A stretch of 63,612 nt of DNA, the filler included. It is 6 parts of 6 records of this genome, joined end to end, with 100 filler letters (N's around TTAATTAATTAA, not from the genome) between each part and the next. Parts side by side here need not be neighbours in the genome. Positions count along the whole stretch, not along the records: positions 1 to 19,811 come from SRR31156797_52215; 5 more parts are not named here. One strand, written 5' to 3'. Below the pieces are notes generated by a model. The model was not told the DNA's origin, did no database searches, and saw only the letters and a list, made by a program, of their open reading frames with translations. A program made the position numbers and the translations under genes. Position 1 is the first letter of the stretch. Each line of letters starts with the position of its first letter. Positions 1 through 17,254 of this stretch are shown piece by piece.

Positions 1-50
1 AAGCGAAAATCCTCATTTATGGACAGACACGAACTAATTAAATAAAACTA

Positions 51-1103
51 TTACATTGACAGAGGAGTTAAAGCTTTTGCATCGGCTGCAAACTTCGCGC
101 GTTCTTCAGCTGGTGCAGGAATCAACCCTTTTTCAGTAAGGTAACCATCTTCTCCCCAGGTGCGGTCACTGGAAAATTCAGCAAGGAACTCTGCAATGCC
201 TGGGATAACGCCAACATGTGCTTTTTTAACGTAAAAGTAGAGCGGACGTGAAACAGGGTAGTTGCCATCTGCAATGTTTTCAAAGGTCGGTGCCTGCCCA
301 TCAACGATGGAACCCTGAATTTTGTCTCCATTCTGATCCAAAAAGCTGAATCCGAAAATACCCAGGCTCTGTGGGTTGGCTTCAAGCTTCTGCACAATCA
401 GGTTATCGTTTTCACCTGCCTCAATATACGCACCGTCTTCACGAACCGTGTGACAAATTCCCTTGTAGGCTTTTTTGTCTTTTTTCTTCATTGCCTTAAT
501 AAAATCAAATTTCTTACACCCGCCTTCCATGGCAAGTTCCACAAAGGCATCACGGGTACCAGAGGTAGGAGGAGGTCCCAGAACTTCAATCGTTGTTGCC
601 GGCAGTTCCGGGTTAACGTCCTTCCAGGTTTTATAAGGATTAGGTACCAGGCTCTCTCCACCTTTAGGATCAGGTACATCCTTGGCTAATGCAAGAAAGA
701 GATCTTTACGGCTTAATTTCAACTGCTCAGCCTTTTTGGAATTGGCAACAACGATCCCATCGTACCCGATCTTGATTTCAACAATATCCTTTACTCCGTT
801 ATCCTGACATTTTTTATATTCAGAGGATTTGATACGGCGAGAAGCATTGGAGACATCAGGGGTCTCAACACCAACACCGGCACAAAACAATTTCATCCCC
901 CCGCCGGAACCGGTGGACTCAATTTTTGGAGTCTTAAAGGTGGTGGTCTTACCAAACTGTTCAGCAACTGTGGTTGCAAAAGGGTAGACAGTTGATGAAC
1001 CGACAATGGAAATATAGTCTCTTCCACCAGCTGCCAGAGAGGTATTTGCAGCAGACACAGCCAGTAAAGATGCTGCTCCAAAAATGAAACTTTTCTTCAA
1101 CAT
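51..1103 (-). CDS. pstS: Phosphate ABC transporter substrate-binding protein (PstS, GSSTV type)
   Basis: Signal peptide; motifs IVGSSTVYPF, STGSGGG, PPTSGTRD, YPVSRPLYFY; downstream of pstC/pstA. Confidence 0.93.
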   Translation of the reverse strand: MLKKSFIFGAASLLAVSAANTSLAAGGRDYISIVGSSTVYPFATTVAEQFGKTTTFKTPKIESTGSGGGMKLFCAGVGVETPDVSNASRRIKSSEYKKCQDNGVKDIVEIKIGYDGIVVANSKKAEQLKLSRKDLFLALAKDVPDPKGGESLVPNPYKTWKDVNPELPATTIEVLGPPPTSGTRDAFVELAMEGGCKKFDFIKAMKKKDKKAYKGICHTVREDGAYIEAGENDNLIVQKLEANPQSLGIFGFSFLDQNGDKIQGSIVDGQAPTFENIADGNYPVSRPLYFYVKKAHVGVIPGIAEFLAEFSSDRTWGEDGYLTEKGLIPAPAEERAKFAADAKALTPLSM

Positions 1104-1199
1104 TACTTTTCTCCTAAGAATTATTTTTCAATCCAATTGTTAGTGAAGGGCTGTCCTGCCGCTTCACGATAAACACGTTTTGCCAACACTTTTTCTCTA

Positions 1200-2471
1200 T
1201 TACCAGCGACGCTCGAACTTCTTTCTCAAAAATACAGCTGCCCCATTCATACAAATCAGGAAGGTAAGCAGCACCATGATAGCGGCAGAGGTACGTTCAA
1301 CAAAAGCACGCTCTGGTGAGTCGGCCCAAAGATAAATCTGGACCGGCAGTACTGTGGCAGGATCAGTCAAAGAGCCTGGCACGTCCACGATAAAGGCTAC
1401 CATACCAATCATTAACAGAGGCGCTGTCTCGCCAAGGGCCTGGGCCATACCAATAATGGTGCCAGTCATCATCCCTGGCATGGCAAGCGGCAGTACGTGA
1501 TGGGTAATGGCCTGCATCTTTGATGCCCCGACCCCAAGGGCTGCCTCTCTAATTGAAGGCGGTACAGACTTAAGCGAGGCCCTGCTTGCTATTATAATGG
1601 TCGGCAGGGTCATCAGGGTCAGTACCAATCCTCCAACGAGCGGTGCAGACCGGGGTAAACCAAAAAAATTAAGAAATACAGCCAGGCCAAGAAGGCCGAA
1701 AACAATCGAAGGAACCGCAGCAAGATTGTTGATATTGACCTCAATCAAGTCTGTCCACTTATTGGAAGGAGCAAATTCCTCAAGGTATACTGCCGCAGAA
1801 ACGCCAATGGGAAAAGAGAGAGCCAGAGTAATCAACAGGGTGAACATAGACCCCATTATAGCTCCCTTGATACCTGACAGCTCAGGTTCCCTGGAGTCAC
1901 CTGCCGTAAAAAAAGTGGTATTAAATTTAAGTTCCAGACGCCCTGCTTCAACCAACTGATCCACCCACCCAATCTGATCATCTGAAATGCGTCGTTCCGC
2001 CTCGGGAACGTCACGGGAAATATGCCCCTTAAGAAGCATATCCACCTCGTCATCGGCAGGTAAACGAACAAGTTTGGTAGTACCGATAAGGGTCGGGTCT
2101 TTCAGCACCATATCCTGCAATTCAAATGCAGCACCAGAGCTGACGAGTTTGTTCAACCGGCGCGTCTTCGACCTGCCGCTAACATCAGGAAAAAGCTCGC
2201 CCATGGAGGTTTTAATTAACTTCGCATAATTGGCATTTCGAAGGTTTTCAACCTGCAGTATCTGCTCATCAAAGGTAATATCGAGATAAATTGCTGCCTG
2301 CCGAAAAGCTGTCCAGCCGTTTGCTGCGATTGAACCAAACAAAAAAGCCAGAAACAACATGCTGACGACAATTGCCGCCAGACCAAACAGTTTGAATCGT
2401 TTTTCCTTACGGTATCGCCGGGCAAGGCCGCGATTGACGACATCCATGGTAGAGGGGGCTTGCTTTTCCAT
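1200..2471 (-). CDS. pstA: Phosphate ABC transporter permease PstA (long form)
   Basis: NLAAVPSIVFG, EAALGVGAS, GETAPLL. Start reassigned to ATG 2471 (MEKQ..., GGA upstream) to avoid overlap with pstC. Confidence 0.92.
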   Translation of the reverse strand: MEKQAPSTMDVVNRGLARRYRKEKRFKLFGLAAIVVSMLFLAFLFGSIAANGWTAFRQAAIYLDITFDEQILQVENLRNANYAKLIKTSMGELFPDVSGRSKTRRLNKLVSSGAAFELQDMVLKDPTLIGTTKLVRLPADDEVDMLLKGHISRDVPEAERRISDDQIGWVDQLVEAGRLELKFNTTFFTAGDSREPELSGIKGAIMGSMFTLLITLALSFPIGVSAAVYLEEFAPSNKWTDLIEVNINNLAAVPSIVFGLLGLAVFLNFFGLPRSAPLVGGLVLTLMTLPTIIIASRASLKSVPPSIREAALGVGASKMQAITHHVLPLAMPGMMTGTIIGMAQALGETAPLLMIGMVAFIVDVPGSLTDPATVLPVQIYLWADSPERAFVERTSAAIMVLLTFLICMNGAAVFLRKKFERRW

Positions 2472-2496
2472 ATTTTTTCCAAATAACAGGTGGGTC

Positions 2497-3882
2497 TTAT
2501 TCGTATTCTTCGCGGTATTTGCGAACCACGTGAAGAGCGATGACATTGAGTATCAGAGTGATCACAAATAACAGCAGCCCCAAGGCAAAGGCTGCCAAGG
2601 TCTTGGGACTGTCAAATTCCTGGTCACCTACAAGCAGAGTGACGATCTGTACCGTAACGGTGGTTACAGCCTGCAGAGGGTTTGCAGTCAGATTAGCTGA
2701 AAGACCGGCAGCCATCACCACGATCATTGTCTCACCAATGGCTCTGGAAGCTGCCAGCAGAATGGAACCAACGATTCCAGGCAGTGCTGCCGGCAGGATA
2801 ACATTTGTGATAGTTTCGCTCTTGGTTGCACCTAGACCGTAGGAGCCATCACGTAGCGACTGGGGAACGGCGTTAATAACATCATCAGACAGTGATGACA
2901 CAAAGGGAATGATCATCACGCCCATTACAAGACCTGCGGCAAGAGCGCTTTCAGATGAAACTGACAGGCCAAAGGTTACCCCAGCATTACGAATGAGCGG
3001 AGCAACAACAAGTGCTGCAAAAAAACCGTAAACAACCGTAGGAACCCCGGCCAGAATTTCAAGCAGCGGCTTCACGATTGCTCGAAATCGTTTGCCTGCA
3101 TATTCTGAAAGATAAACCGCTGCCATCAGCCCTATTGGTACAGCCACCGCCATGGCAATCCCTGAAATCATAAAGGTTCCTGCAAGAACAGGAATCGCAC
3201 CAAAACTACCGGAACTCCCTGCCTGGTCTGCCCTGATAGCCATTTGCGGACTCCATTTAAGGCCAAACAAAAAATCAGTAAATGGAACCTGCTGAAAAAA
3301 ACGATATGATTCAAAAATGACAGACAGGACAATGCCGATGGTGGTAAAAATAGCTATTGCAGAGCACAAAATGAGGATAACCTTTACGACACCTTCCACA
3401 TGGTTCCTGGCTCTCATGGTTGGCTTAATCCGCGAATAGATAAATAAACATCCAACCATGGCACAGGAAAACATAACCACGGCCAGCGCCACGCTGCCGA
3501 TACGCTCCATGGCAATATATCTATCTGCAGCTAGCTGCAGCTGTGGGTCAACCTCACCTGAAAAGAAATTTCCAGAGACCAGATTGCGTAAATCATTGAC
3601 CAGCAGGTTTAGGTGTGCATTATCAACGGTCTCTCCATGGCCGACAATTGCCCCCATAACCATGTTGGTGAGGACAGTATCTGACAGAGACTGCCAGACA
3701 ACAAAAATAAGCAGCGCAGGAATTGCGCACCATAGGGCTGTAAGCATCCCATAATACCCAGGCCGGGAGTGCAGCTTTGTTGAATGCGCCTTGCCGGCAA
3801 CAGCAAAGGCTTTCTTCTTCCCCACCATATAGGCAAGGGAAGAAAGGATGAGGGTGATAATGACAAGTAGGTTTGGCGACAT
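2497..3882 (-). CDS. pstC: Phosphate ABC transporter permease PstC (long form)
   Basis: LEILAGVPTVVYG, GSYGLGAT, RAIGETMIV; multiple TM segments. Confidence 0.92.
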   Translation of the reverse strand: MSPNLLVIITLILSSLAYMVGKKKAFAVAGKAHSTKLHSRPGYYGMLTALWCAIPALLIFVVWQSLSDTVLTNMVMGAIVGHGETVDNAHLNLLVNDLRNLVSGNFFSGEVDPQLQLAADRYIAMERIGSVALAVVMFSCAMVGCLFIYSRIKPTMRARNHVEGVVKVILILCSAIAIFTTIGIVLSVIFESYRFFQQVPFTDFLFGLKWSPQMAIRADQAGSSGSFGAIPVLAGTFMISGIAMAVAVPIGLMAAVYLSEYAGKRFRAIVKPLLEILAGVPTVVYGFFAALVVAPLIRNAGVTFGLSVSSESALAAGLVMGVMIIPFVSSLSDDVINAVPQSLRDGSYGLGATKSETITNVILPAALPGIVGSILLAASRAIGETMIVVMAAGLSANLTANPLQAVTTVTVQIVTLLVGDQEFDSPKTLAAFALGLLLFVITLILNVIALHVVRKYREEYE

Positions 3883-3942
3883 TTTGCGTGTCCGTTAAAA
3901 AATAAGAAATCAAGTGATAGTGGAATATATTATCGCCCCTTT

Positions 3943-3981
3943 ATTAACCAACAGTTCGGCAACTGTTAGGATTGCGTTAAG
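3943..3981 (-). promoter_or_regulatory. Putative Pho box array upstream of pstC
   Basis: + strand hexamers attaac(3943), gttcgg(3954), gttagg(3965), gttaag(3976) at exact 11-bp period; same motif upstream of pstS2 and phoU. Confidence 0.7.
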
Positions 3982-4216
3982 ACGGTTGCCATCACAGCTC
4001 TTTTGCGCTTATGGTACGGACACAGTGCAGGGCCACTTCATAAACTTTATTTATCCGGCACCTCAGGCAAGACGACTTTGCCCAAGCACAAACTTTAATG
4101 ATTGCAATCTATTACCTTCACGTTTTCACTGCGCTCTGGCAAAATGCATGAATGATGTATATATTTTTTGCCTGCCTTTCAATCGTAGGTAATGACGACA
4201 TAAAAAGGAGAACAGA

Positions 4217-5362
4217 ATGGGAAAATGCATAGGCGTATTAACAGCAGGTGGTGACAGTCCAGGACTGAATGCCGCTATTCGCGCCATTGGTAAAAGTGCT
4301 CTCAGCTCGTATAAGATGCAGGTAATTGGCTTCAGAGACGGTTTTCGGGGGCTCATGGAAAACCGAACAGTACAGCTGGAAGGCGATATTCTCTCGGGCA
4401 TCCTCACCCGTGGCGGTACAATTCTTGGCACCAGTCGCGACAAACCACATAAAATGCCTGTAGGGTCAAAGATGCAGGATATGACAGAGGTTATGCTCGA
4501 TAACTATCATCGTCATCACCTTGAAGCACTCATCTGTATCGGCGGCGGTGGAACCCAAAAAAATGCGCTCCGTTTAGCCCAGGCCGGGATGAATATCGTG
4601 ACCCTTCCCAAGACTATAGATAACGATGTCGCCCAAACAGATATCACCTTTGGTTTTGACACTGCTCTTTCCATCGCCACAGATGCGATCGACCGGCTGC
4701 ATTCGACAGCCCATAGCCACCACCGCATCATTGTCGTCGAAATAATGGGACACAATGCCGGCTGGCTAGGACTCGGTGCAGGCATGGCCAGCGGCGCCGA
4801 CGTGATCCTCATCCCTGAAATCCCTTATGACGTAAGCTTAGTGGCAGAGGCCATTCGCAGAAGACGGCACAGAGGGAAAAACTTCAGCATTGTTGCAGTT
4901 TCAGAAGGTGCCCTGGCAAAAGAGGATGACCAGGTATTGGCAGAGCTTCAGGCAAAAAAGAAAAAAGCCAAAGAAAATGGTGATGGAAAAAAACTTAAAA
5001 AGGCTGCAGACTCACTCACACACTTTAAGTCGATTCAGAAAGAAAACACCCTGCTCCTTTCCAGCAAACTTGAAGCCATGACAGGACTGGAGAGCCGAGT
5101 CACCATTTTGGGCCATCTCCAACGGGGCGGAACCCCTTCAGCTGCAGACCGCATTTTGGCAACCCGCCTTGGCACAAAAGCGGTTGAAGCCATCGACAAA
5201 AAACAGTATGGCCACATGGTGGCTGTCAATGGGGAAACAACCTGCCTGATTCCCTTGGAAGAGGTCGCCGGACAGCGAAAAATCATCCCCCTTAATCACC
5301 CTTGGATACGTTCTGCTATCGAGACCGGAACATGCCTGGGAGCTGAAATACCCTTAAAGTGA
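4217..5362 (+). CDS. pfkA: 6-phosphofructokinase (group III / mixed-substrate type)
   Basis: [49 protein letters not shown]. Confidence 0.9.
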
Positions 5363-5510
5363 GTAGTTTTAAATTTGTTCTGACAAACCCTGAAAGTAGT
5401 TTGGATCACACCTTAATCCCTGGTTTGACAGCATCCCTGATCACAATCAATACCTTCGCAGGCAATGCCCAAGCTGCATAGTTTGTGAATAGTGCCTACT
5501 AACATGCGCG

Positions 5511-5617
5511 GTAACTACTCACAGGCCCCCATCTCTGGACGGTCACGATCTCCCGCATAGAAGGGCTATAGCGAAAAATCGCGCCTGTCCAAATATGAGG
5601 CACCTGTGAGCAGTTAC
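5511..5617. repeat. 107-bp imperfect palindrome, MITE/REP-like element
   Basis: Termini GTAACTACTCACAGG / CCTGTGAGCAGTTAC (14/15 complementary); nested inner arms tggac/gtcca, cgat/atcg, atag/ctat. Confidence 0.65.
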
Positions 5618-5666
5618 AGATTTTAGGGTATAACAAACCAAAGAGTTACCAACCCCGTGAGTTACA

Positions 5667-6347
5667 ATGCGCGTATTTATAATTGAATGCCCCAATCCAA
5701 TAGATTTGCTTCAAGGAAGAAACGAAGGAAAAAGTCTGGAACAGATCTGTAAATTAGTCGGCCACGAGGTTGTCAGCTTTCAACCTAAATCAAAAAATGA
5801 CTTTTCAACCGTATGCAAATATATCTCAAGCATAGACAGGGACCACGATGGCTCTGACAACCCTGATCTTCCACTCTGTATCCATATTTCCAGCCATGGC
5901 GAAGAAGACGGATTATGGTTTGGAAAAGATCTGATCAGTTGGAACGAATTGCTTGAGGCACTTGAACCAATCTGTACCAAAAAATCCATCTATAAGGGTG
6001 AAAAGATACTGACAATATCGGCATGTGAGGCAAAAGAACAGCAGCTAACTAAAAAAATAGAGAAAAAGTGGATGATAAACACAGCCTTCCAACCACCACG
6101 ACACCTGTTTGTCACGGCCGATGAGGAGGTATACTGGAAAGACGCTGTAGTGGCCTGGGCATTATTCTACAATAAAATTCCCAAAACAAATTTATCCAAA
6201 AAAAAGAAGATATTAACCATACTGACACTCATCCGTAAAGCGGAACTGGGATGCATCCATTATTACCGATGGTCGACAAAGAAAGGAAAATACAAAGGCT
6301 ATTGCTCACAAGGGTCGCTCAAAAAAATAAGCGTAGGCATATGTTGA
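5667..6347 (+). CDS. Hypothetical protein, caspase/CHAT-like cysteine protease fold
   Basis: IHISSHG (His77) and LTISAC (Cys120) match the clan CD His-Gly...Ala-Cys dyad pattern and spacing. Confidence 0.6.
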   Translation: MRVFIIECPNPIDLLQGRNEGKSLEQICKLVGHEVVSFQPKSKNDFSTVCKYISSIDRDHDGSDNPDLPLCIHISSHGEEDGLWFGKDLISWNELLEALEPICTKKSIYKGEKILTISACEAKEQQLTKKIEKKWMINTAFQPPRHLFVTADEEVYWKDAVVAWALFYNKIPKTNLSKKKKILTILTLIRKAELGCIHYYRWSTKKGKYKGYCSQGSLKKISVGIC

Positions 6348-6437
6348 TATCAGAGACTACACTTCCATTCGCACTTATTTATGGGCACAGCCATATGCCC
6401 AGTGCATTGTAATATCCGCAGCAGAAGCTGCAAAATA

Positions 6438-7100
6438 TCAAAGCGGTAACAGAAATTGTTCTCTGGCTTGTTTTTTGAGAAACTTAGCAAACTTCTTGTT
6501 TATTTTCGGAAGAGTATAGTATTTCCCTACAATAGTTTTATGGGTGCTTTTAGCAAGACTTGAAGGGTCAAAATATCCTTTTGCATTTTCAACACTCAAA
6601 ACAAATGGCGGCTTCCCGTGACGCACAAGGATAGAGCTCATCATCAGCCCACCAGTTCGATGATTTCCCTCAAAAAAAAGCTGAGGCCTGCTCACATGCT
6701 GGATATAGAGTCCTGAAGCTATTTTCCAAGGAGAATCGTCTTTATGTCTTTGGGCCCATTTTCGAAGATCAGTGATGCAAAAATCTTTTTGATGGTAGAA
6801 GCGCTCTGTTGTTGCCTGTATATGTTCCAGGTAATTTTTTCGCCTTTTCTTATCAGTCCCACAAAGAACAATGTTATTTAATTCAAGAAAATGATGGAGG
6901 TTGGATCTCTCCAGCAGATTGAGATCTCTGGAAATCAGATAATTTGTATATTGATACCCTTCTAGAAGATTGTTGAGAATTTCATCACGCAGCGGCTCAC
7001 GCAGCATATCCAACGTTTCATTGATTTTATCAAAATCACGCTGGACCTGGCGAAGTGATTTTTCCACCTCATCCATATTTATAGTGTAAGCTGATGCCAT
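6438..7100 (-). CDS. Fic/Doc-like protein with degenerate active-site motif
   Basis: QLFFEGNHRTGG aligns to the Fic motif HPFx(D/E)GN(G/K)RxxR; followed by a helix and GKPPF. Confidence 0.7.
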   Translation of the reverse strand: MASAYTINMDEVEKSLRQVQRDFDKINETLDMLREPLRDEILNNLLEGYQYTNYLISRDLNLLERSNLHHFLELNNIVLCGTDKKRRKNYLEHIQATTERFYHQKDFCITDLRKWAQRHKDDSPWKIASGLYIQHVSRPQLFFEGNHRTGGLMMSSILVRHGKPPFVLSVENAKGYFDPSSLAKSTHKTIVGKYYTLPKINKKFAKFLKKQAREQFLLPL

Positions 7101-7104
7101 AGAT

Positions 7105-7134
7105 AAGAAAACCCACGAGGCAAGGCCCCTTGGG
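7105..7134 (-). terminator. Terminator/attenuator-like hairpin between pstS3 and the Fic-like gene
   Basis: Minus strand CCCAAGGGG-ccttg-CCTCGTGGG-TTTTCTT (one mismatch, one G-U). Confidence 0.45.
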
Positions 7135-7165
7135 AAAAGGGTTAATCCAGCTTTTACATTCTCTT

Positions 7166-8209
7166 TTAGTGTACCATCTTTAGTACTTCAATACCTGCGG
7201 TCGTTACAGACGCCGGCAAAGGTACATATCCAAGTTCATCAGCATACTGTTGCCCATCGGTAAGGGCCCACCGAACAAACTGCTTTACTTTCTCTCCCTT
7301 GGCACCATCAACATATTTTTTATACAACAGAAGCCAACTATAGGTGATGATAGGATAGGAAGAAATGCCATCTGGATCCGGGAGAAACATGCGCAGGTTG
7401 GCTGGCATTGCTGCGGCTGTATCAGCCAGGGTTTTGGAACCTGCCGCTCCAGACGGCCTGACATACTCGCCACTTTTGTTTTCCAATATAGCCATTGCAA
7501 GTCCAGCTCGCCGCGCAACCCCATATTCAACGTACCCAATGCTGCCCCAGGAATGACTGATTTTTACAGCGACGCCTTCATTGTATCGTCCGGACATCGA
7601 GTTCCCTGGCCAGTCCACCTTTTTTCCAACGCCAGGCCCTTCTGTTTTCCAGGCAGGGCTAATACTGTTCAGGTGATTGGTAAACGCCCAGGTTGTACCT
7701 GATGAGTCACTTCTGCTTACCGTCACAATATTGAGTTTAGGTAATTTTTTTCCAGGGTTTAACGTCAAAATACGTTCATCGTTCCAGTATCTGATTTTGC
7801 CAAGAAAAATATCCGTATAAACATCACGGCTGAGTTTTAAATCGCCTTGAATTCCAGGGATATTATACCCGAGTACAATGAGACCTGCCGTTGCAGGAAT
7901 GAGTTGAACTCCAGCCTTAACCTGACTGATCTGCCTATCGCTCATTGCTGCATCACTGGCTCCAAAGTCAATGGTGCCTGCCATAAAACGTTTGGTACCG
8001 GCTCCACTGCCTACCGCATCATAATACAGTGAAAAATCACTGTGGTGTTGGCTAAATTCCTTAATCCAGCGTTGATAGAGTGGTGCTGGAAATGTAGCCC
8101 CGGCACCGATGATATCTGCATTATCAATTGTCACCTTAGGTGCTGCAAATGCAGCTGAGGTAGACAGTAAAAGCAGAAAAGAAAATATAACGTTTGTAAC
8201 TCTTTTCAT
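7166..8209 (-). CDS. pstS: Phosphate-binding protein PstS (GAGATFP type)
   Basis: GAGATFPAPLY, VGSGAG, DFGASD, RSDSSGTT; start moved to ATG 8209 after GGAGGGTGAGG. Confidence 0.93.
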   Translation of the reverse strand: MKRVTNVIFSFLLLLSTSAAFAAPKVTIDNADIIGAGATFPAPLYQRWIKEFSQHHSDFSLYYDAVGSGAGTKRFMAGTIDFGASDAAMSDRQISQVKAGVQLIPATAGLIVLGYNIPGIQGDLKLSRDVYTDIFLGKIRYWNDERILTLNPGKKLPKLNIVTVSRSDSSGTTWAFTNHLNSISPAWKTEGPGVGKKVDWPGNSMSGRYNEGVAVKISHSWGSIGYVEYGVARRAGLAMAILENKSGEYVRPSGAAGSKTLADTAAAMPANLRMFLPDPDGISSYPIITYSWLLLYKKYVDGAKGEKVKQFVRWALTDGQQYADELGYVPLPASVTTAGIEVLKMVH

Positions 8210-8225
8210 ATCCTCACCCTCCAGT

Positions 8226-9071
8226 TTAGGAGAACTCACCGTGCAGGTATTCTTGTGTCAATTGTTCCTGTGGATTTTGAAAAAGATCCTTGGTCTTATT
8301 CATTTCAACCAGGTAACCGGTTCGGCCACCTTTGGATATGTCGACTGCAAAAAAGGCTGTCTGGTCAGCTACACGCATGGCCTGCTGCATGTTATGGGTA
8401 ACAATAGCAAGCGTGTATTTTTGTTTGAGCTCAGTCATTAAGTCTTCAACCTGTCGGGTTGCAATGGGGTCAAGGGCCGAACATGGTTCATCCATGAGCA
8501 ATACGCGAGGCTCGGTAGCAATAGCGCGAGCAATGCATAAGCGCTGCTGCTGTCCACCGGAAAGTGACAAGCCATTATTTTTGAGTTTGTTTTTTACTTC
8601 TTTCCACAACGCAGCACCTCGTAATGCCTTTTCCACTTTTTCATCCATATCACCTTTAAATCGGTTCAGTCTGAGGCCAAAGGCAACATTTTCATAAATG
8701 GACATGGAAAAAGGATTTGGTTGCTGGAAGACCATCCCAATGTTTCTCCGAACCGAAACCGGATCAATTTTTTTATCATAGATATCTACACCATGAAAAT
8801 GTACCTGACCTTCAAAGCGAAAACCTCTAATAAGGTCGTTCATACGGTTAATGCTTTTCAGTACCGTACTTTTTCCGCAGCCTGATGGCCCGATAAAACC
8901 GGTGATCTGATTTTTAGTAATTGGAACATAACTATCCCGGACAGCAAGGAAATCTGAATAATAGATACGATCGGCCCGACAATCCAGTGCAATATCACTA
9001 GGCAATTCATCTGCCTGTGCCGCTGTTTCATTTGTGCTTGGGGTTGTATCGTTTTGCATCTGTAACTCCAT
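8226..9071 (-). CDS. pstB: Phosphate ABC transporter ATPase PstB
   Basis: [34 protein letters not shown]. Confidence 0.95.
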
Positions 9072-9081
9072 TTACCATATA

Positions 9082-9969
9082 TTAAATGCGTTTACGCTGA
9101 CCGATCATTCGGCTCATGATGTTAAGTAAAAAGACCATTACAACCAAGACAAGGGATGCAGCCCAGGCAAGTTCAATCTGGTTCTCAAAGGGCATACCTG
9201 AGTAGTTATAAATAAGAACCGCCAAAGAAGCGGTAGGTTCGTTAGCGTTCACCCAGTAATCGGAAAAGAGTGCAGTAAACAAGAGGGGTGCAGTCTCACC
9301 GGCAGCCCTTGCTACGGCAAGTACAACCCCAGTTATTATGCTTGGCATTGCAACAGGCAGCGTAACCTTGAGCAGACTTTGGGTTGAGGTACACCCCATA
9401 CCAAAAGCAGCCTCTTTCATTGGGAGTGGTACCATTTTAATAGCCTCTTCAGCAGTAAGCATAACAACAGGTACCATTAAGAGGGCGAGTGCGATACCAC
9501 CTGCCCATGCAGAGTAATGTCCCATGGCCAGAACGACCGCAGCATAGGCAAACACACCAGCTAGAATTGATGGCAATCCTGTCATAGTCTTAGCGCAGAA
9601 TCGTGCAATGTTAGCAACTTTGCTATGAGGACCAAGTTCTGCAAGATAAATAGCAGCAAGCACCCCAAAAGGAACACTAATGAGAGCAGCAAGCCCAACC
9701 ATGAACAGCGTACCGAGGATTGCATTAGCAAAACCACCCCCGGTTTCAAATGCTGTAGGCGGCAGTGCATAAAAAAGCTCTAAGCTCAGTCGCTTACCAC
9801 CACGATAAATGAGCATTATCAAAACTGAAAACAGGGGTAGACAAGCCCAAACAGCAGCAGTTACTGTCACGGCACTGAGAACAATTGACTTGAGAGCACG
9901 CGGCTCAAAAGCCTGCCTTTCTAGATTCGGTAGATGGAATTCATCCGTTACCTTATGTTTGCTACTCAT
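9082..9969 (-). CDS. pstA: Phosphate ABC transporter permease PstA (short form)
   Basis: GLPSILAG, EAAFGMG, ARAAGETAPLLFT. Confidence 0.93.
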   Translation of the reverse strand: MSSKHKVTDEFHLPNLERQAFEPRALKSIVLSAVTVTAAVWACLPLFSVLIMLIYRGGKRLSLELFYALPPTAFETGGGFANAILGTLFMVGLAALISVPFGVLAAIYLAELGPHSKVANIARFCAKTMTGLPSILAGVFAYAAVVLAMGHYSAWAGGIALALLMVPVVMLTAEEAIKMVPLPMKEAAFGMGCTSTQSLLKVTLPVAMPSIITGVVLAVARAAGETAPLLFTALFSDYWVNANEPTASLAVLIYNYSGMPFENQIELAWAASLVLVVMVFLLNIMSRMIGQRKRI

Positions 9970-10937
9970 TATTTTCCTCCCGAGGTGGTCTTGGAGATGA
10001 TGATAGCACCGAGCACATTAACAGCCAGAGTAATAAGCAGAAGAACGCAGGCAGCATACATCAAGACCGAGGCCTCATACTCACTAGCTTCAGGAAAGTT
10101 AAGTGCCAGCAGAGTCGCCAGAGTATTACCTGGAGCAAACAGCGAGAGGCTGATTTGATTGGAGTTACCAACCAGCATTGCCAATGCCATTGTTTCACCA
10201 AGCGCCCGACCAAACCCGAGAACCATAGCTCCAAAGATACCACTGGAGGCAGTGGGGAGCATAACCCGTAGAATTGCTTCCCACCGAGTTGTTCCCATTC
10301 CAAAAGCGGCTTCTTTTGTTTTATGCGGGATAGCAAGAAATGCGTCTTGAGAAATAGCCGCGATGGTGGGCAAAATCATAATTGCCAGTACCAGTGACGC
10401 CGGAAGCATACCTGGCCCACTGAGGCTGGTAGAGAAAAAAGGAATCCATCCAAGATGAGTATGTAAATAATCTGTTAGAGGTCTGATAAGGGGGATAAGA
10501 ACAAAAATACCCCAGAGACCGTAAACAACACTTGGGATAGCGGCCAACAGTTCGATGATATTTTTAAGGACGACTTGAACGGGATATGGCAGAAAATCCT
10601 GGGTAAGAAATATGGCGATGGATACACCGAAAAACCCACCAATAATAAGTGCAAGAAACGAACTATAGAGTGTTCCCCATATCTCTGGAAGGATACCAAA
10701 CTTGTCAGCATTCACATCCCAATTGGTCGTGTAAAGAAAACTAATGCCGTGTTCTGCGATAGCCGGCAGCGCTTGCCCCCCAATTTTATAAACAATAAAG
10801 GCGAGCAGTAGAATGGTTGCAAAAGTAAACGTATAGGTCAACCCGCGAAAACTTTTATCAAAAAGTTTATCACCAGTAGAGGGCGGCTTAGAAATCGACT
10901 GGGAATCATCAAATTCAACAAAATCATTTTGTGCCAT
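9969..10937 (-). CDS. pstC: Phosphate ABC transporter permease PstC (short form)
   Basis: ELLAAIPSVVYGLWG, EAAFGMGTTRWE, GRALGETMA; TAATG coupling to pstA. Confidence 0.93.
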   Translation of the reverse strand: MAQNDFVEFDDSQSISKPPSTGDKLFDKSFRGLTYTFTFATILLLAFIVYKIGGQALPAIAEHGISFLYTTNWDVNADKFGILPEIWGTLYSSFLALIIGGFFGVSIAIFLTQDFLPYPVQVVLKNIIELLAAIPSVVYGLWGIFVLIPLIRPLTDYLHTHLGWIPFFSTSLSGPGMLPASLVLAIMILPTIAAISQDAFLAIPHKTKEAAFGMGTTRWEAILRVMLPTASSGIFGAMVLGFGRALGETMALAMLVGNSNQISLSLFAPGNTLATLLALNFPEASEYEASVLMYAACVLLLITLAVNVLGAIIISKTTSGGK

Positions 10938-10957
10938 ATCTATGATGCTCCGTAGAT

Positions 10958-10998
10958 AAAAAAAAGGGTGTATCCTTATTGAAAACTGGATACACCCT
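10958..10998 (-). terminator. Intrinsic terminator / stabilising hairpin between pstS2 and pstC2
   Basis: Perfect 11-bp stem AGGGTGTATCC / GGATACACCCT followed by a U-tract on the minus strand. Confidence 0.75.
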
Positions 10999-11023
10999 CA
11001 AGCTGAAAAAGACTCAATGCCTA

Positions 11024-12061
11024 TTACTGAATGTTTTGAGCAGCAGCCTTTACTTTTTCGATAACATTTGCCGGAAGTGGAATGTATCCCGCCTTGTCAG
11101 CAATCTTCTGCCCTTCATCAAGGCAGTAGGTTATCATCTTGCGCAGAGCCTCTGCCTTTTTAGCATCATCATACTTCTTGTAGAAAACCATCCAGGTGTA
11201 AGTTGCGATGGGGTAAGATTGCTCACCCGCTGGATCGGAAAGCCAAACAATCATGTCTTCTGGAATCACAGCGTTGGCCAGCGCAGCCTGCCCGCCTTCA
11301 AGACCAGGAGCGATAAATTTCCCATCTTTATTTTCGATACTTGCCATGGCAAGTTTAGCCATACGTGCAAAGCCGAATTCAATATAACCAATTGCTCCAG
11401 GGGTCTGCATAATGGTTGCAGTTACACCGTCATTTTTTGGTGATTTAACCATTTTTGTATCTTTAGGCCAATTGATGGTTTTACCAAAGCCCGGTCCACT
11501 TTTAAATTCTTCAGAAATGGTACTGAGGTGCTTGGTAAAAACAAAGGTGGTTCCTGAACTGTCAGCCCGAGAAACAACGGTGATTTCTTTGTCTGGAAGA
11601 GAGATGCCAGGATTAGCAGCTGCAATTGCAGGGTCGTTCCACTTCTTTACCTGGCCAAGGAAAATTTTGGGATAAACTTCACGAGGCAGCTTCAGCTCGT
11701 TCACGCCTTTCAGGTTGTAGGCAAGAACAACTTCGCCAGCAGTCATTGGTAGCAACTGAACGCCTTCTGGTACCTTGGCGATCTCCTTTTCAGACATGGC
11801 TGCATCACTTGCTGCAAAATCTACCATGTGATTTTGAAAATCACGGATACCGGCACCTGAGCCCTTTGATTGGTAATTCACCTGAATATCTTTGTTTGCG
11901 CGGCTAAACTGTTTAAACCAGGTCGTATAAATTGGCGCAGGAAAACTTGCGCCAGAACCAACAATTTTTGTGGTTGCACAAACTGCAGGCTGGATAACCA
12001 GTAAAGATGCTGCAGCACCTAAAATGAGTCCACTAAAAATTTTATTCAATTTCATTGTCAT
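11024..12061 (-). CDS. pstS: Phosphate-binding protein PstS (GSGASFP type)
   Basis: Signal peptide; GSGASFPAPIY, KGSGAG, DFAASD, RADSSGTT. Confidence 0.94.
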   Translation of the reverse strand: MTMKLNKIFSGLILGAAASLLVIQPAVCATTKIVGSGASFPAPIYTTWFKQFSRANKDIQVNYQSKGSGAGIRDFQNHMVDFAASDAAMSEKEIAKVPEGVQLLPMTAGEVVLAYNLKGVNELKLPREVYPKIFLGQVKKWNDPAIAAANPGISLPDKEITVVSRADSSGTTFVFTKHLSTISEEFKSGPGFGKTINWPKDTKMVKSPKNDGVTATIMQTPGAIGYIEFGFARMAKLAMASIENKDGKFIAPGLEGGQAALANAVIPEDMIVWLSDPAGEQSYPIATYTWMVFYKKYDDAKKAEALRKMITYCLDEGQKIADKAGYIPLPANVIEKVKAAAQNIQ

Positions 12062-12135
12062 TCCCTATAACGTTTTAATGTAGAAATTCTGACCAGAAGC
12101 GTATACTAGAAACATGAGTAATCGGATATATTTAT

Positions 12136-12152
12136 GTTAGGTTTTCGTTAGG
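12136..12152 (-). promoter_or_regulatory. Putative Pho box upstream of pstS2
   Basis: Minus strand CCTAAC-gaaaa-CCTAAC (11-bp period). Confidence 0.7.
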
Positions 12153-12327
12153 TCGAAAGAGTGGGACAAGATTGCCACATTGAATTCCAGCATACCACCT
12201 TCTCTCTGTGAGGATTAGGTCAAGGCTGAGCTGCTGCACCTTACAGGTCCGTCATACCAAACAACAGACTTCCGCAGCACCAGACATCGAGTGACGAGAG
12301 CTGCGCTTTCTAGCGCTAAAAGGGTTA

Positions 12328-12996
12328 TTAATCCCCTCCCCCACGGACGATTTCCCCTTCCACCAAATAAATAACTTCTTCGGCTATGTTATTGGTTCGG
12401 TCGCCAATACGTTCGAGATGGCGTGCTATGAGATACAGGTTCAATAAACCTGCCCCTATCCCTTCCTCTTTGTTCTTGTCCAGTTCCTCTGTCACGGCTT
12501 TGTAGGCCAGGTTACGATACCTGTCGACCTCCTCGTCCATATGAAAGACCTTGCGTGCAAGGTCAGCATTTTCTGAAACCAAGGCATCAAGGCTGATTTT
12601 GACCATCTCCAGTGCCTTTTCAGCCATCGGCTGATAATCAAAATTGAAACCGAGCTTGTCCTTCTTTTCAATGGTCAGAACCCGCTTGCAAATATTGACA
12701 GCTAAATCTGCAATACGCTCCAACTCGCTATTTATCTTTATGATCGCAACTATAAGACGCAGGTCTCTTGCCACAGGTTGATGCAGAGCCAAAATCTTTA
12801 GACACTCCTCCTCAACCATAATCTCCATGTCATCGATTTCCCAATCCGAGGTGAGCAGGTTGTGTGCTAGCTCCTGATCGCGACCGGCAAGAACACTACA
12901 GGCTTGACGTACTCTGTCTTCCACCAAGCCACCTAGCTCAAGAACCTTCTTTTTCAATAATTCAATTTCACGATGAAAATGCATGTGTCTACTCAC
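12328..12996 (-). CDS. phoU: Phosphate signalling protein PhoU
   Basis: LALHQPVARDLR, ELERIADLA, HLERIGD..NIAE; GTG start after GGAGGG. Confidence 0.95.
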   Translation of the reverse strand: MSRHMHFHREIELLKKKVLELGGLVEDRVRQACSVLAGRDQELAHNLLTSDWEIDDMEIMVEEECLKILALHQPVARDLRLIVAIIKINSELERIADLAVNICKRVLTIEKKDKLGFNFDYQPMAEKALEMVKISLDALVSENADLARKVFHMDEEVDRYRNLAYKAVTEELDKNKEEGIGAGLLNLYLIARHLERIGDRTNNIAEEVIYLVEGEIVRGGGD

Positions 12997-13053
12997 GATA
13001 CCCTCCTGTGGGTGGGATAATTTCAAATGAGCCAAATAATAAAATCACCGGAC

Positions 13054-13092
13054 GTTACTACGTTGTTAAGAAATGATTAAGAATGTATTAGC
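13054..13092 (-). promoter_or_regulatory. Putative Pho box array in the phoU/phoB divergent region
   Basis: + strand gttact(13054), gttaag(13065), attaag(13076), attagc(13087) at exact 11-bp period. Confidence 0.7.
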
Positions 13093-13172
13093 ATTTTTCT
13101 TTTTTATTGCAACAGCACGGCCAAAGGCCGTAAAGTATTTGTTATTTGCTAAGAGAAACAAAAGGATAGAAA

Positions 13173-13871
13173 GTGACCAAACTCCGCATTTTGATCGTCG
13201 AAGATGACGCCGACATCCAGCAGCTTGTCAGTTATAACCTGATCAAGGCAGGTTATAATGTCACCTGTGCTGATACAGGTGAAGAAGCACTGCAGGTATT
13301 GAACAGCGAGCCCATTGATGCCATGCTCCTCGACCTTATGCTGCCTGGAAAAGACGGCATGGAAGTGTGCAGCACTGTCAGGGCTACCGAAAAAACACGG
13401 GCCCTGCCCATCATCATGCTCACCGCAAAGGGTGAAGAGGATGACGTTGTCTCTGGACTAGACTATGGTGCAGACGATTATGTTACCAAACCTTTCAGCC
13501 CGCGGGTTCTGCTTGCCCGAATAGAAGCTGTGCTGCGCCGAAAACCTGGCCAGCAGGAAGACGACCAAGGCAACGAAAAGGACGGCATCCTACTTCATTC
13601 CATGGAAATCCATCCAGGACGCCATGAAGTACGCATTGAAGGCGAGAAAATCCACTTAACCATCACCGAATTTACAATCCTCACCCTGCTTGCCAGCCGA
13701 CCTGGGTGGGTTTTTTCCAGGCAGCAGATTATTGATCACGTTCGCGGCTATGACTACATGATTACCCCTCGCGCAGTGGATGTGCAAATTTTTGGCCTTC
13801 GCAAAAAACTCGGCCCATCAGGCAGCTACATTGAAACCGTACGAGGTATCGGTTACAGAATCAAAGAGTAG
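13173..13871 (+). CDS. phoB: OmpR-family response regulator PhoB
   Basis: VEDD, LDLMLP, GADDYVTKPF, winged helix ETVRGIGY; pho context. Confidence 0.9.
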   Translation: MTKLRILIVEDDADIQQLVSYNLIKAGYNVTCADTGEEALQVLNSEPIDAMLLDLMLPGKDGMEVCSTVRATEKTRALPIIMLTAKGEEDDVVSGLDYGADDYVTKPFSPRVLLARIEAVLRRKPGQQEDDQGNEKDGILLHSMEIHPGRHEVRIEGEKIHLTITEFTILTLLASRPGWVFSRQQIIDHVRGYDYMITPRAVDVQIFGLRKKLGPSGSYIETVRGIGYRIKE

Positions 13872-13957
13872 ACCATCCCTTGTCATTTCCAGAATACGGA
13901 CACCTGGCAGATCACATCAGCCATTCAATTCTTCCTCCTCAACTATCCACCTAAGCT

Positions 13958-15766
13958 ATGAAAAACATACGTCTTTTTTGGCAAATATTCCCAGCAATCC
14001 TCCTAACCACCATTATTTCTCTTGCTGCTGTGGTCTGGTATATTTCAGCGACAGGTCGTGATTTTTACCTGGAACAACTCCAGGAAGGACTCAAAAACAG
14101 AGCGCTGCTCATTGAGTCGCCCATTGTAACGTATGCGGACACGTCCCAGGAAGACCTGCAGAAATTCATTCGGACTGCAGGAAGACGGGCAGCAACCCGC
14201 ATTACCCTTATAGACAAAACAGGCATAGTTTTGAGCGACTCCAATGAAGACCACAAACAAATGGAGAACCATGCCAACCGGCCAGAGATCAAGCAAGCCC
14301 AGCAAGGAAAAACAGGGGCTTCCATCCGGTTTAGCAAAACCCTGCAACACTCCATGCTTTATATCGCTATTCCGATCAAACTTAAAAATGGCGATCCAGC
14401 CACTCTCCGCCTTTCAGTACCCACTACATCTTATGAAGAAAAACTTACCTCAATCAGCACCAAAATAGGACTAATAGGTATCGGCATATTCATTATTGCC
14501 GCACTGCTCGCCCTCCTCAGTGCACGCCGCATCAGCCGCCCACTGGAAAAGATGAAACAAGGGGCAGAGCAGTTAACCAAAGGACGTATCGATCAACTGA
14601 TAAAGATCAGCAGCGACCACATGTCAGTGGAAATGGCAGGCCTTGCCGGAGCCCTTAATCAGATGGCCGATGAAATAAACCGTCGGGTACGGGTCATTAT
14701 CCAGCAACGTAATGAGCTGGAAGCAGTTTTCGCCAGCATGGCCGACTCGGTAGTGGCCATTGATGCGGATCAGAAAATCCTGCGCATGAACAAGGCCGCG
14801 ACCGGGCTTTTTACCCTCTCTTCTGATGCTGTAAAAGGAGCGCCCATCCATGGGGTAATCCGCAACCAGGAACTGCTCAGTCTTATAGAGCAGGCACTAC
14901 AGGAAAACGTCACCATAAAGGAAGATGTTACTCTTTTCGACGGTACCAAGCCGCTTATTCTGCAGGTCCATGTGGTACCCCTCTGTGACGAACAGCAACC
15001 CATGGGGGTACTGCTTGTCATGCACGATCTCACCAAACTCAACCGCCTTGAAAACATCCGCCAGGATTTTGTCGCCAATGTTTCCCATGAACTCAAGACC
15101 CCGATTACAGCAATCAAAGGCTATGTCGAGACCCTTCTGGACGGTGCGCTGGAAAACCATGACGATGCTGTCCAGTTCCTGACGATCGTTTCCAAGCAAA
15201 CAACGAGGCTGAACTCGATTATTGACGACCTCCTGGCCCTTTCACGCATAGAAAACAAACATGAGTCAGGGGAGGTGGAGTTGAATCCCCTGCCGGTAAC
15301 GCCGGTTTTTGAAGCGGCAATGCAGACATGCAGCAGTCATGCTGAGAAGAAAAAGATGACGATTACAATTGAAAGTGATGATGCACTCGTGGTTCCCATG
15401 AATCAGCCTTTACTTGAACAGGCCATAATCAATTTGCTCCAGAATGCCATCACCTATAGTCCTGAACAGTCAACAGTGACTCTCAAGGGTACAAGCAGCC
15501 AGACCATGACAGGCGGACAGATGGTCAATCTCAGTGTTATTGATCAAGGGTCGGGGATTGCCAAGGAGCACATTCCGCGGCTCTTTGAACGATTTTATCG
15601 ATGTGATAAGGCAAGAGGCAGGGATTTAGGGGGTACCGGCCTGGGCTTGGCTATTGTCAAGCATATAGCCCATACCCATAACGGCAGGGTGGATGTGATC
15701 AGCTCTCCTGATACGGGTTCAACTTTTACCCTGAGTATACCAGTCAATGCAGCAGAGCTGAGTTAG
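13958..15766 (+). CDS. phoR: Sensor histidine kinase PhoR (TM-HAMP-PAS-HisKA-HATPase)
   Basis: DFVANVSHELKTP, NLLQNAITY, DQGSGI, FERFYR, GGTGLGLAIVK. Confidence 0.9.
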   Translation: MKNIRLFWQIFPAILLTTIISLAAVVWYISATGRDFYLEQLQEGLKNRALLIESPIVTYADTSQEDLQKFIRTAGRRAATRITLIDKTGIVLSDSNEDHKQMENHANRPEIKQAQQGKTGASIRFSKTLQHSMLYIAIPIKLKNGDPATLRLSVPTTSYEEKLTSISTKIGLIGIGIFIIAALLALLSARRISRPLEKMKQGAEQLTKGRIDQLIKISSDHMSVEMAGLAGALNQMADEINRRVRVIIQQRNELEAVFASMADSVVAIDADQKILRMNKAATGLFTLSSDAVKGAPIHGVIRNQELLSLIEQALQENVTIKEDVTLFDGTKPLILQVHVVPLCDEQQPMGVLLVMHDLTKLNRLENIRQDFVANVSHELKTPITAIKGYVETLLDGALENHDDAVQFLTIVSKQTTRLNSIIDDLLALSRIENKHESGEVELNPLPVTPVFEAAMQTCSSHAEKKKMTITIESDDALVVPMNQPLLEQAIINLLQNAITYSPEQSTVTLKGTSSQTMTGGQMVNLSVIDQGSGIAKEHIPRLFERFYRCDKARGRDLGGTGLGLAIVKHIAHTHNGRVDVISSPDTGSTFTLSIPVNAAELS

Positions 15767-15810
15767 TATGAGCTGAGTTAGTTATTACCGAAGCGACGCA
15801 GGCAACAGAG

Positions 15811-15850
15811 TTAACAAAGAAAGTGCCGATAACGGCACCTTCTTTGTTAA
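15811..15850. terminator. Bidirectional terminator between convergent phoR and oadB
   Basis: TTAACAAAGAAAGTGCCG-ataa-CGGCACCTTCTTTGTTAA (17/18 paired). Confidence 0.8.
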
Positions 15851-15859
15851 TTTTTCAAC

Positions 15860-17191
15860 CTATTTCAGCAATGCCAGCAGCACTCCAGCGGCAACAGCAG
15901 AACCGATCACGCCGGAAACATTTGCTCCCATGGCGTGCATAATTAAATGATTATGCGGATTAGCTTCCATTCCCACTTTATTGACAACCCTTGCAGCCAT
16001 AGGAACAGCTGAAACGCCTGCCGCACCAATCAGTGGATTAATGGGTGAACGCGACAATTTATTCATCAATTTGGCTATCAAAATACCGGTAGCTGTGCCA
16101 ATACAGAATGCAACCATGCCCAGGAGCAAAATACCCAAAGTCTCCATATTCAAAAATTTATCGGCAGAGAGTTTACTGCCCACACCAAGGCCAAGGAAGA
16201 TGGTTACGGTGTACATGAGAGAATTCTTGATCGTATCCGACAATCGGTCCACCACTCCGCACTCTTTGGCAAGATTGCCCAGCATAAACATACCGATAAG
16301 CGGTGCAGCAGACGGCAGCAGCAGTGCACAAATTCCGAGCACCACCAACGGCAGCACAATTTTTTCCACCCTTGATACATGCCTGAGCTGAACCATTTTA
16401 ATTTTGCGTTCCTCTTCAGTGGTAAGCCATTTCATGATCGGAGGCTGAATAAGAGGGACCAAGGCCATATACGAATAGGCAGCAATGGCAATAGAACCGA
16501 GTAACCTGGGAGAGAGCTGACTGGAGAGGAAAATAGCGGTTGGTCCATCTGCACCACCGATAATCCCAATTGATGCTGCATCGCGAAGGGAAAAATCAAT
16601 CCCGGGAATCAGATCCGTAAGCACCAAGGCACCAAGCAACGTAGAAAAAATACCGAATTGAGCAGCTCCGCCAAGAAGAATGGTTTTAGGATTGGCAATC
16701 ATAGGCCCGAAATCGGTCAATGCCCCCACCCCCATAAAGATCAACAGAGGGAAAATGCCGGTGACAATCCCCACTTCATAAATATAATAAAGAATACCAC
16801 CAGGATCAGCAATCCCTGCAAAGGGAATATTGGCAAGAAGGGCACCGTAGCCTATGGGAATTAATAAAAGCGGTTCAAACTGCTTAAAAATGCCCAGATA
16901 TATTAATACCAGACCAACTCCCAGCATCAACAACCTGCCTACCCCTAGAGTCCATCCATTAAGTCGTTGGCCATCCATGAGCCCATAGAGCCCTGTGGTT
17001 TTATATAAATTTACAGCGAGGGTGGGCACATCGGGCAACGACACATCGGCACCAGTTTCTGTCTCATTAACCACGCCCGTTTCTTGTACAGGGACGGTCT
17101 TGGCGGCTGTTGCAGTTCCGGCCCCTGCCACACTGCAGGCAAGTCCCAAAGCCACCATCAGAAAAACAAGATGAAAAACAAACAACTTCAT
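15860..17191 (-). CDS. oadB: Na+-translocating decarboxylase beta subunit
   Basis: [47 protein letters not shown]. Confidence 0.93.
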
Positions 17192-17254
17192 ACGTACATC
17201 TCCATTACAGCCGCTGGAACCAGGCCGCAGGCATTGAAAACTGTGAGCACCTGA

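Follow-up and report, generated by a model that had tools for sequence, protein, structure and literature searches.

An important question raised by the locus described here is what a protein of the Fic type is doing at the end of a phosphate-uptake operon. The locus lies in a stretch of 63,612 nucleotides (hereafter the window), in which six parts from six records of one genome are joined end to end, with 100 filler letters between each part and the next. All coordinates count along this whole stretch, positions 1 to 19,811 of which come from SRR31156797_52215. On the minus strand, an open reading frame (ORF) of 220 codons at 6438..7100, with its ATG at 7100, closes a pstSCAB-pstS run and was given the working name ficL. 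The original prediction, made from the letters alone, took its product for a pseudo-Fic protein and a candidate new component of the phosphate regulon. The follow-up analysis leads to a similar answer: ficL encodes a single-domain protein of predicted Fic fold without the catalytic histidine, which probably belongs to the phosphate-starvation machinery as a component that does not AMPylate and has not been described before.

Fic adenosine monophosphate (AMP) transferases carry the signature HxFx(D/E)GN(G/K)RxxR, in which the His acts as the general base, and the last Arg holds the gamma-phosphate and pairs with an inhibitory Glu. The corresponding active-site loop of ficL, P139-Q-L-F-F-E-G-N-H-R-T-G-G151 (6648..6686, minus strand), was assigned from its sequence, its register against FICD and its conservation, and appears to be remodelled. 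With the register anchored on E144-G-N, Q140 (codon 6681-6683) stands at the catalytic His, H147 (codon 6660-6662) at the G/K or G2 position and G151 at the last Arg. Both codons were checked against the window sequence, the translation of which reads S137-R-P-Q140-L-F-F-E144-G-N-H147-R148-T-G-G151, exactly as first described. The ungapped HMMER alignment to FICD gave the same register. A gapped alternative sets residue 138 on the catalytic His, and this residue is never His in the family.

Among 39 relatives sharing 48-79% identity, 45 columns are invariant, including P139, Q140, L141, E144, G145, N146, H147, R148 and G150. N75, P139, N146 and R148 remain invariant in a wider set of 54 sequences (25-56% identity), in which Q140 is kept by 50 members (E in three, P in one, His in none), E144 by 52, G145 by 53 and H147 by 48 (Q in four, N in one and R in one), while position 151 is occupied by A, S, T, N, V, C or G and never by Arg. 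Translation of the fetched loci yielded 134 distinct motif contexts, with Gln in 132 cases, His at G2 in 133 and the last Arg in none. The Gln is thus neither unique to the window copy nor a sign of decay, since it recurs in all 39 close relatives and in nearly all distant ones, with His in none. The exchange of His for Gln and of G/K for His and the loss of the last Arg, with the anion hole preserved, hold for the family much as it was proposed for the single gene. That ficL is not a standard AMPylase, as had also been proposed, follows from the missing catalytic His and last Arg. The suggestion that His147 provides a different chemistry is weakened, since this residue is Q, N or R in 6 of the 54 wider-family members. 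Judged from these alignments, the general base and the gamma-phosphate Arg were lost in an ancient change that is now fixed, with the Mg2+/phosphate nest kept. ficL, which would work like a degenerate Fic domain, is not filed as a Fic enzyme, because it fails at the His, at G2 and at the last Arg and stays under the Pfam cut-off (Fic, PF02661: 16.1 bits, E 0.021, against a gathering cut-off of 24 bits). For the inhibitory motif (S/T)xxxE(G/N) no conserved match was found. The stretch N43-x-x-x-E47-G48 of the window protein resembles it; the 39 relatives have E, D, A, L or R at residue 47, G48 is kept in 34 of the 54 sequences, and residues about 54-62, which align weakly with the FICD inhibitory helix, are variable.

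The second pillar of the answer is the genomic context. The Pst and Pho proteins of the window served as tblastn queries to score it on 131 non-duplicate loci, of which 80 were metagenomic, 6 came from genomes and the others had been excised from GTDB genomes. In 119 of them, ficL is at least 42% identical, the near-identical pairs L024/L116 and L015/L016 both being counted. Within these 119, pstS lies directly upstream of ficL on the same strand in 65 loci and pstB in 21, whereas in 6 others ficL comes first and pstS lies directly downstream. A pst gene was found within 6 kb in 5 more, 8 have at least 1 kb of upstream flank without pst, and in 14 the flank is too short to judge. The best 30 loci of a gammaproteobacterial order sample included 25 that are pst-adjacent, one with pstB about 0.6 kb upstream, one with nothing in 1.5 kb and three that could not be judged. 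In a FastTree tree of 160 rows (duplicates removed, the gammaproteobacterial sample added and thresholds slightly different from those of the 119-locus count), the main clade of 145 rows contained 92 loci with pstS upstream, 24 with pstB upstream, 8 with pstS downstream, 14 that were not assessable and 7 others. Consequently, pstS or pstB is directly adjacent on the same strand in 124 of the 131 assessable main-clade loci, and this adjacency spans deep branches of the tree, two separately sampled orders (Desulfobulbales-type and gammaproteobacterial) and metagenomes. By a rough estimate, which assumes about 4,000 genes and a handful of pst operons among them, a random gene would directly follow pstS or pstB well under once per thousand. 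The gaps between pstS and ficL are operon-like, 25 nt or less in 27 of 59 pairs and only 2-5 nt in several. The linkage to phosphate genes on which the original prediction hung is therefore very strong, and ficL has a fixed place in high-affinity phosphate-uptake (pstSCAB) operons, most often at their end, behind pstB or a second pstS. No recurrent partner was found downstream: the largest cluster comprised 9 of 94 loci and had a weak HAD-hydrolase match, and smaller ones were ppk1 (3 loci, just downstream of ficL in L060) and corA (3 loci).

The arrangement in the window conforms to this pattern. In the order of transcription on the minus strand it comprises phoU (12328..13035; TIGR02135, 191.2 bits against a cut-off of 130.25), pstS2 as the first gene of the pstSCAB-pstS-ficL run (11024..12061; TIGR00975, 396.7 against 205), the permease genes pstC (9969..10937; TIGR02138, 304.9 against 196.45) and pstA (9082..9969; TIGR00974, 259.6 against 193.45), the ATPase gene pstB (8226..9071; TIGR00972, 371.7 against 343.2), the second substrate-binding protein gene pstS3 (7166..8239; TIGR00975, 328 against 205; also PBP_like_2), which ends the pstSCAB run, and ficL. 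All six pst and phoU genes thus exceed the curated NCBIfam cut-offs. The phoB-like and phoR-like genes diverge from phoU, and their best NCBIfam matches are both under the cut-offs. As stated at the outset of the work, ficL is co-oriented with the pst genes and starts 65 bp past pstS3, which is correct for the minus strand (spacer 7101..7165). The claim that no antitoxin gene adjoins it also stood: there is no small ORF on either side of ficL in the window, only these 65 bp upstream and 90 bp downstream, after which comes a convergent ORF.

The spacer has no convincing terminator: between pstS3 and ficL there is only a stem of 5 pairs, and the folding of the spacer (z +0.86) is no better than that of shuffled sequences, the scan giving 9 terminator-like sites against 7.8 in shuffles. 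A candidate Pho box, CCTAAC-N5-CCTAAC, lies at 12136..12152 on the minus strand, about 75 nt upstream of pstS2. Others, likewise on the minus strand, lie at 3954-3981 upstream of a second pst set (with a third repeat at 3954-3970 that has one mismatch) and at 13065-13081 between phoU and phoB. The three phosphate promoters of the window thereby share the direct repeat CYTAAY-N5-CYTAAC with an 11-nt spacing; it has no further exact match in 63.6 kb, where 0.03 would be expected, the pattern being derived from these same three sites and so no independent test. In the related loci, exact candidate boxes were found in L096 (496-512, upstream of pstS) and L132 (6440-6456, between phoU and phoB). 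There is none directly before ficL. A search of the window for the E. coli-type Pho box with up to 3 mismatches gave 3 matches against 5.4 expected, none of them in a promoter. Since neither a terminator nor a candidate box precedes ficL, we infer that it is read from the pstS2 promoter, and the whole run may stand under the candidate box at 12136..12152 and hence under PhoB control.

The fold was examined on an AlphaFold2 model built from the alignment of 39 relatives, which reached a predicted local distance difference test (pLDDT) value of 86.9 and a predicted template modelling score (pTM) of 0.86. With this model, the top 33 Foldseek rows were all Fic proteins (3cuc and FICD 4u04 among them), at modest values (E 3.6e-3, template modelling score about 0.48). 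VIA-align, which is independent of Foldseek, ranked Fic, Doc and AvrB structures at places 1-23 among 48,161 representative chains, with Z from 11.6 to 6.2 and the next unrelated chain at Z 5.0, a Z near 11 alone not being decisive for helical proteins. The best match was FICD 4u04_A (Z 11.6, root-mean-square deviation (rmsd) 3.5, 170 aligned residues), and the Fic/Doc/AvrB matches cover model residues about 8-215. Because of the clean Z separation, the near full-length coverage and the position of the motif on the Fic loop, the assignment is safe for the predicted structure: ficL belongs to the Fido superfamily (Fic/Doc/AvrB fold), with a helical core and a catalytic loop leading into the central helix, so the Fic fold that had been presumed is borne out by the model. 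Sequence searches gave fainter signals of the same kind. Across the 54 family members, the Pfam Fic profile matched 18 at E≤0.01 (best 1.4e-5); the sole Pfam matches of the window protein, all weak, were DUF5995, Fic and IMEF_Flp, with no PhoU domain (PF01895), and NCBIfam gave no match to it. The family profile matches C. elegans FIC-1 across the motif (E 1.5e-4), the closest ESM Atlas clusters are unnamed hypothetical proteins followed by Fido clusters, and PHROGs and PADLOC returned only weak matches (E 4.4e-4 and 1.8e-3). The best E-value of the profile in the PDB (2.4e-6) fell to CpcN, chain 5 of 8imn, through five weak repeats with an i-E-value of at least 53 each, and is probably due to chance. 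CpcN is a phycobilisome linker, and its repeated 'ELNH..L.G...' stretch coincides with the helix of the invariant N75 in the ficL family.

The predicted protein has an isoelectric point of 9.5 (family median 9.47), a maximal 19-residue Kyte-Doolittle mean of 0.92, neither signal peptide nor membrane segment, and a conserved Lys-rich helix at residues 197-210. With no hydrophobic stretch and no signal peptide, the ficL product should be cytoplasmic, unlike the preceding PstS. DSSP assigns helices at 84-89 and 91-103 and no strand across residues 65-137 in the predicted model, which hints that helices may replace the target-docking beta-hairpin flap of canonical Fic proteins.

FICD/HYPE and the bacterial class II Fic AMPylases (4u04, 3cuc, 5jj6) are the best structural (Z 11.6 and 11.3) and sequence matches to ficL, sharing the helical core, the loop-then-helix arrangement, E/D-G-N with the first Arg and a G-x-P-P-[FI] strand after the loop helix. 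In contrast to them, ficL has Gln for the catalytic His and His for the second Gly, and the last Arg is missing; it is without a conserved (S/T)xxxE(G/N), without the beta-hairpin flap in the predicted model, and without additional domains such as TPR, and it is found in pst operons. Doc, the EF-Tu kinase of the Phd-Doc pair (PDB 3dd7), has the Fido fold in common with ficL (Z 9.0). It carries Lys at the G2 position, alongside a non-AMPylating use of the site, so that both proteins have a basic side chain there; however, Doc keeps the catalytic His and an antitoxin, and ficL has neither. AvrB (PDB 1nh1) is close to ficL (Z 10.6, rmsd 3.8, 173 aligned residues) and has the Fido fold without the Fic signature, but this plant-pathogen effector lacks the whole motif, whereas ficL keeps E-G-N-x-R. 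The FIC domains of Bartonella BepC and Bep8 have kept the fold and the loop with a degenerate signature, as in ficL; they belong to effectors that arose from FicTA modules, carry OB and BID domains and are secreted to act on the host, whereas ficL is housekeeping-type and predicted cytoplasmic. Passages of PMC8401265 describe a side chain at G2 (Glu in Bep8) that appears to make the binding of triphosphate nucleotides impossible, and BepC as having a non-canonical motif and no detected enzymatic activity, yet binding a partner. By analogy, this precedent would fit a ficL site too small for adenosine triphosphate in the canonical pose.

PhoU takes the same operon slot, after pstB, as ficL, to which it is unrelated in sequence or fold. 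Replacement of PhoU by ficL was considered and ruled out: PhoU occurs in the window, and 3 of the 5 ficL genomes searched have it at another place, the remaining two being metagenome-assembled genomes (MAGs), in which a miss proves nothing. ficL is thus an addition to PhoU. In the abstract of PMC13170248, bacteria are said to pair different accessory regulator families with different phosphate importers.

Homologues of ficL at E≤0.001 numbered 476 of 569 candidates, with 47-80% identity and about 220 aa among the 120 matches listed. An HMMER search of all 1.84 billion cluster representatives gave 355 at E≤0.001 and 58 at E≤1e-30. With so many matches ficL is not a chance frame, and its start is confirmed by homologues that align from residue 1. 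It is a real, conserved gene. Named sources of homologues are Desulfogranum, Desulfobulbus, Desulfopila, Desulfobacter, Desulfosarcina and Desulfovibrio inopinatus, together with Leptospiraceae and MAGs of Geminicoccaceae, Thiohalocapsa and Chromatiaceae. In the databases, the relatives are labeled 'hypothetical protein', 'Fic family protein' or, for several named by the Joint Genome Institute (JGI), 'prophage maintenance system killer protein'. The distribution is patchy: matches occurred in 44 of 401 genomes of the Desulfobulbales-type order sample and 7 of 401 of the phylum sample (both around Desulfogranum), in 58 of 301 of the gammaproteobacterial order sample (around the Thiohalocapsa MAG) and in 3 of 401 of the alphaproteobacterial class sample (around the Geminicoccaceae MAG), many of these genomes being incomplete, so that a non-match means 'not found' and not absence.

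Six database 'proteins' of 1,785-6,777 aa contain an internal ficL domain (P0171, P0195, P0207, P0250, P0258 and P0264). Five of them were scanned, P0195 being too long, and showed unrelated domains: methyltransferases, HTH_8, APH, phosphorylase and peptidase M50. Rather than fusions of ficL, these giants were read as read-through gene calls, perhaps from a wrong genetic code on the contigs. A stop codon was flagged within each of three genome matches, G686:C69, G567:C130 and G664:C68 (L122-L124). In L122 and L124, an intact ORF of 215 aa still spans family residues about 5-219, and the flagged stop may precede the true start. These are the copies found behind PIN-PhoH instead of pst.

The best explanation of these data, to which we give slightly less than an even chance, is a soluble, basic, cytoplasmic pseudo-Fic protein that is made with Pst and binds a small phosphoryl ligand instead of AMPylating. 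Remodelling of its active-site loop has been followed by fixation under selection: Gln took the place of the general-base His, the gamma-phosphate Arg disappeared and a His side chain fills G2 of the anion nest, with the Mg2+-binding Glu, the Asn and the first Arg retained. The transfer of AMP to a protein hydroxyl would thereby be lost, and the remaining nest may bind, with Mg2+, inorganic phosphate (Pi) or pyrophosphate (PPi), possibly also a nucleoside diphosphate or the end of a polyphosphate. Produced together with Pst when phosphate is scarce, the protein may report or buffer the cytoplasmic phosphoryl state towards Pst/PhoR signaling, which it would inform or restrain through its ligand, as an accessory protein beside PhoU and not in its place. 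A prediction of the PstB-ficL complex scored 0.01 against a mark of 0.34, alignments not being used, and is no evidence either way.

Several observations weigh against the pseudo-Fic explanation. Many metagenome rows are close kin, kept as the most query-like, and the 124 pst-adjacent loci do not represent 124 independent events; seven assessable main-clade loci are not pst-adjacent at all. L122 and L124 have PIN-PhoH directly upstream of ficL, and L137 has it nearby; upstream in L047 is a phosphate-selective porin O/P, and L138 and L139 have nothing telling nearby, while in L024 (= L116) ficL sits with an acetate kinase/phosphotransacetylase/dehydrogenase cluster without any phosphate-uptake gene. 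A divergent paralogous clade (L125-L136; about 33% identity; 12 loci, all from GTDB genomes of the Desulfobulbales-type order) keeps the motif PQL[FY]xEGNHR and is not pst-adjacent: its members follow phoB-phoR in 3 of the 12 loci, lie 4-9 kb from pho/pst in one and follow acetyl-CoA-synthetase-like genes in two. As this clade is mostly not linked to pst, the fold and the motif can work away from Pst. Most of the non-pst exceptions nevertheless sit beside other Pho-type genes, namely PIN-PhoH, porin O/P and, in the divergent clade, phoB-phoR. On the side of regulation, Pho control of ficL is deduced from its position, with a box pattern taken from the very sites that it 'finds'. When 36 regions upstream of pstS were crudely scanned for hexamer repeats with an 11-nt spacing, none was common to more than 6 of them. 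The missing flap hairpin is a feature of a predicted model. Finally, the retained E-G-N-x-R nest is equally expected of an enzyme, and the invariance of H147 in the pst-linked clade could mean catalysis rather than binding.

These last two points lead to the idea that ficL is an active, non-AMPylating enzyme, a Mg2+-dependent hydrolase or phosphotransferase acting on PPi, polyphosphate, a nucleotide or an alarmone, which we consider rather unlikely. In this case, E144 with Mg2+ would serve to activate an acceptor or water, while the phosphate would be held in position by H147 and Q140, much as Doc, with Lys at the G2 position, became a kinase. The polar set N75, Q140, E144, N146 and R148 is conserved down to 25% identity, as active sites are, and H147 is invariant in all 39 pst-linked relatives and present in 133 of the 134 motif contexts. 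Passages of PMC8401265 add that other Fic folds with non-canonical motifs perform phosphocholination and phosphorylation, and ppk1 and the weak HAD-like hydrolase match are among the neighbors of ficL. However, the wider family retains no invariant nucleophile or general base besides E144, and H147 is replaced there in 6 of the 54 sequences; Gln is unable to take the proton that His takes, and the gamma-phosphate Arg is lost in all sequences examined. It is more doubtful that ficL is a pure adaptor without a small ligand, in which a dead Fic domain would act by binding proteins, a role reported for BepC. Such an adaptor might tie PstB, PhoU, PhoR or another Pho protein into a complex, or anchor it to the membrane or to polyphosphate by its basic C-terminal helix, in keeping with the conserved Lys-rich helix 197-210 and the fixed operon position beside transporter genes. 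There would be little reason, though, for an adaptor to conserve E144, N146 and R148 almost without exception across so wide a divergence, and the occurrence of ficL away from pst (with PIN-PhoH, phoBR or acetyl-CoA-synthetase-like genes) is an argument against a single, constant partner in Pst.

The reading of ficL as a toxin of the Fic/Doc type, from a toxin-antitoxin module or one for prophage maintenance, would agree with the fold common to FicT, VbhT and Doc and with the JGI name of several relatives, but it is very improbable: the catalytic His is absent in all sequences examined, no small ORF adjoins ficL in the window and no small neighbor recurs in 94 loci, the context is pst operons and not phage genes, and the PHROGs and PADLOC matches are weak. 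Hardly credible at all is a decaying or hitch-hiking gene without function, as its patchy distribution might suggest, given that the frames are intact (about 220 aa), that 45 columns never vary in the 39 sequences and that position and motif are kept across phyla. There is a small chance that something outside these explanations applies.

The surroundings of ficL offer some further observations. Its convergent neighbor, an ORF of 226 aa at 5667-6347 on the plus strand, has no match in Pfam, NCBIfam or PHROGs, a PADLOC row at chance level only, and no homologue in the related ficL loci; its 'HISSHG ... ISACEA' stretches presumably recall a caspase-like His/Cys dyad. The second pst set mentioned above, a long-form phosphate ABC set, occupies 51-5362 on the minus strand and encodes a PstC of 461 aa and a PstA of 448 aa, both extended N-terminally, and a PstS-family protein under its subfamily cut-off (150.8 against 206.6 bits). 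A phosphofructokinase gene diverges from this set. Together with phoU, phoB, phoR and this second set, the first 16 kb of the window is a phosphate island.

A literature search, with subscription papers and supplements outside its scope, found no published link of a Fic/Fido protein to the pst/Pho system. According to the abstract of PMC13170248, it is still debated how Pst and internal phosphate reach PhoR, and no accessory regulators other than PhoU-type proteins are generally taken into account. ficL is a second conserved, predicted cytoplasmic protein fixed in the operon slot of PhoU, in Desulfobacterota, in Gammaproteobacteria of the purple-sulfur type, in some Alphaproteobacteria and in many metagenome contigs from soil and sediment. 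As one small gene with an inferred function, it offers a new, testable handle on the phosphate regulon, and the finding corrects the three database names of its relatives. For the Fic field, it represents a clean natural example of a Fic domain that lacks the histidine, is held by strong purifying selection and occurs in a housekeeping context, and it could show what the Fic nest does once AMP transfer is gone. A bolder proposal, which we regard as rather unlikely, is that ficL founds a new class of transporter-coupled accessory sensor, a Fic-derived pseudoenzyme whose Q...E-G-N-H-R nest reads Pi, PPi or a nucleotide and gates Pst import or PhoR signaling alongside PhoU. If true, this would be a second, unrelated solution to internal-phosphate sensing through the Pst system.

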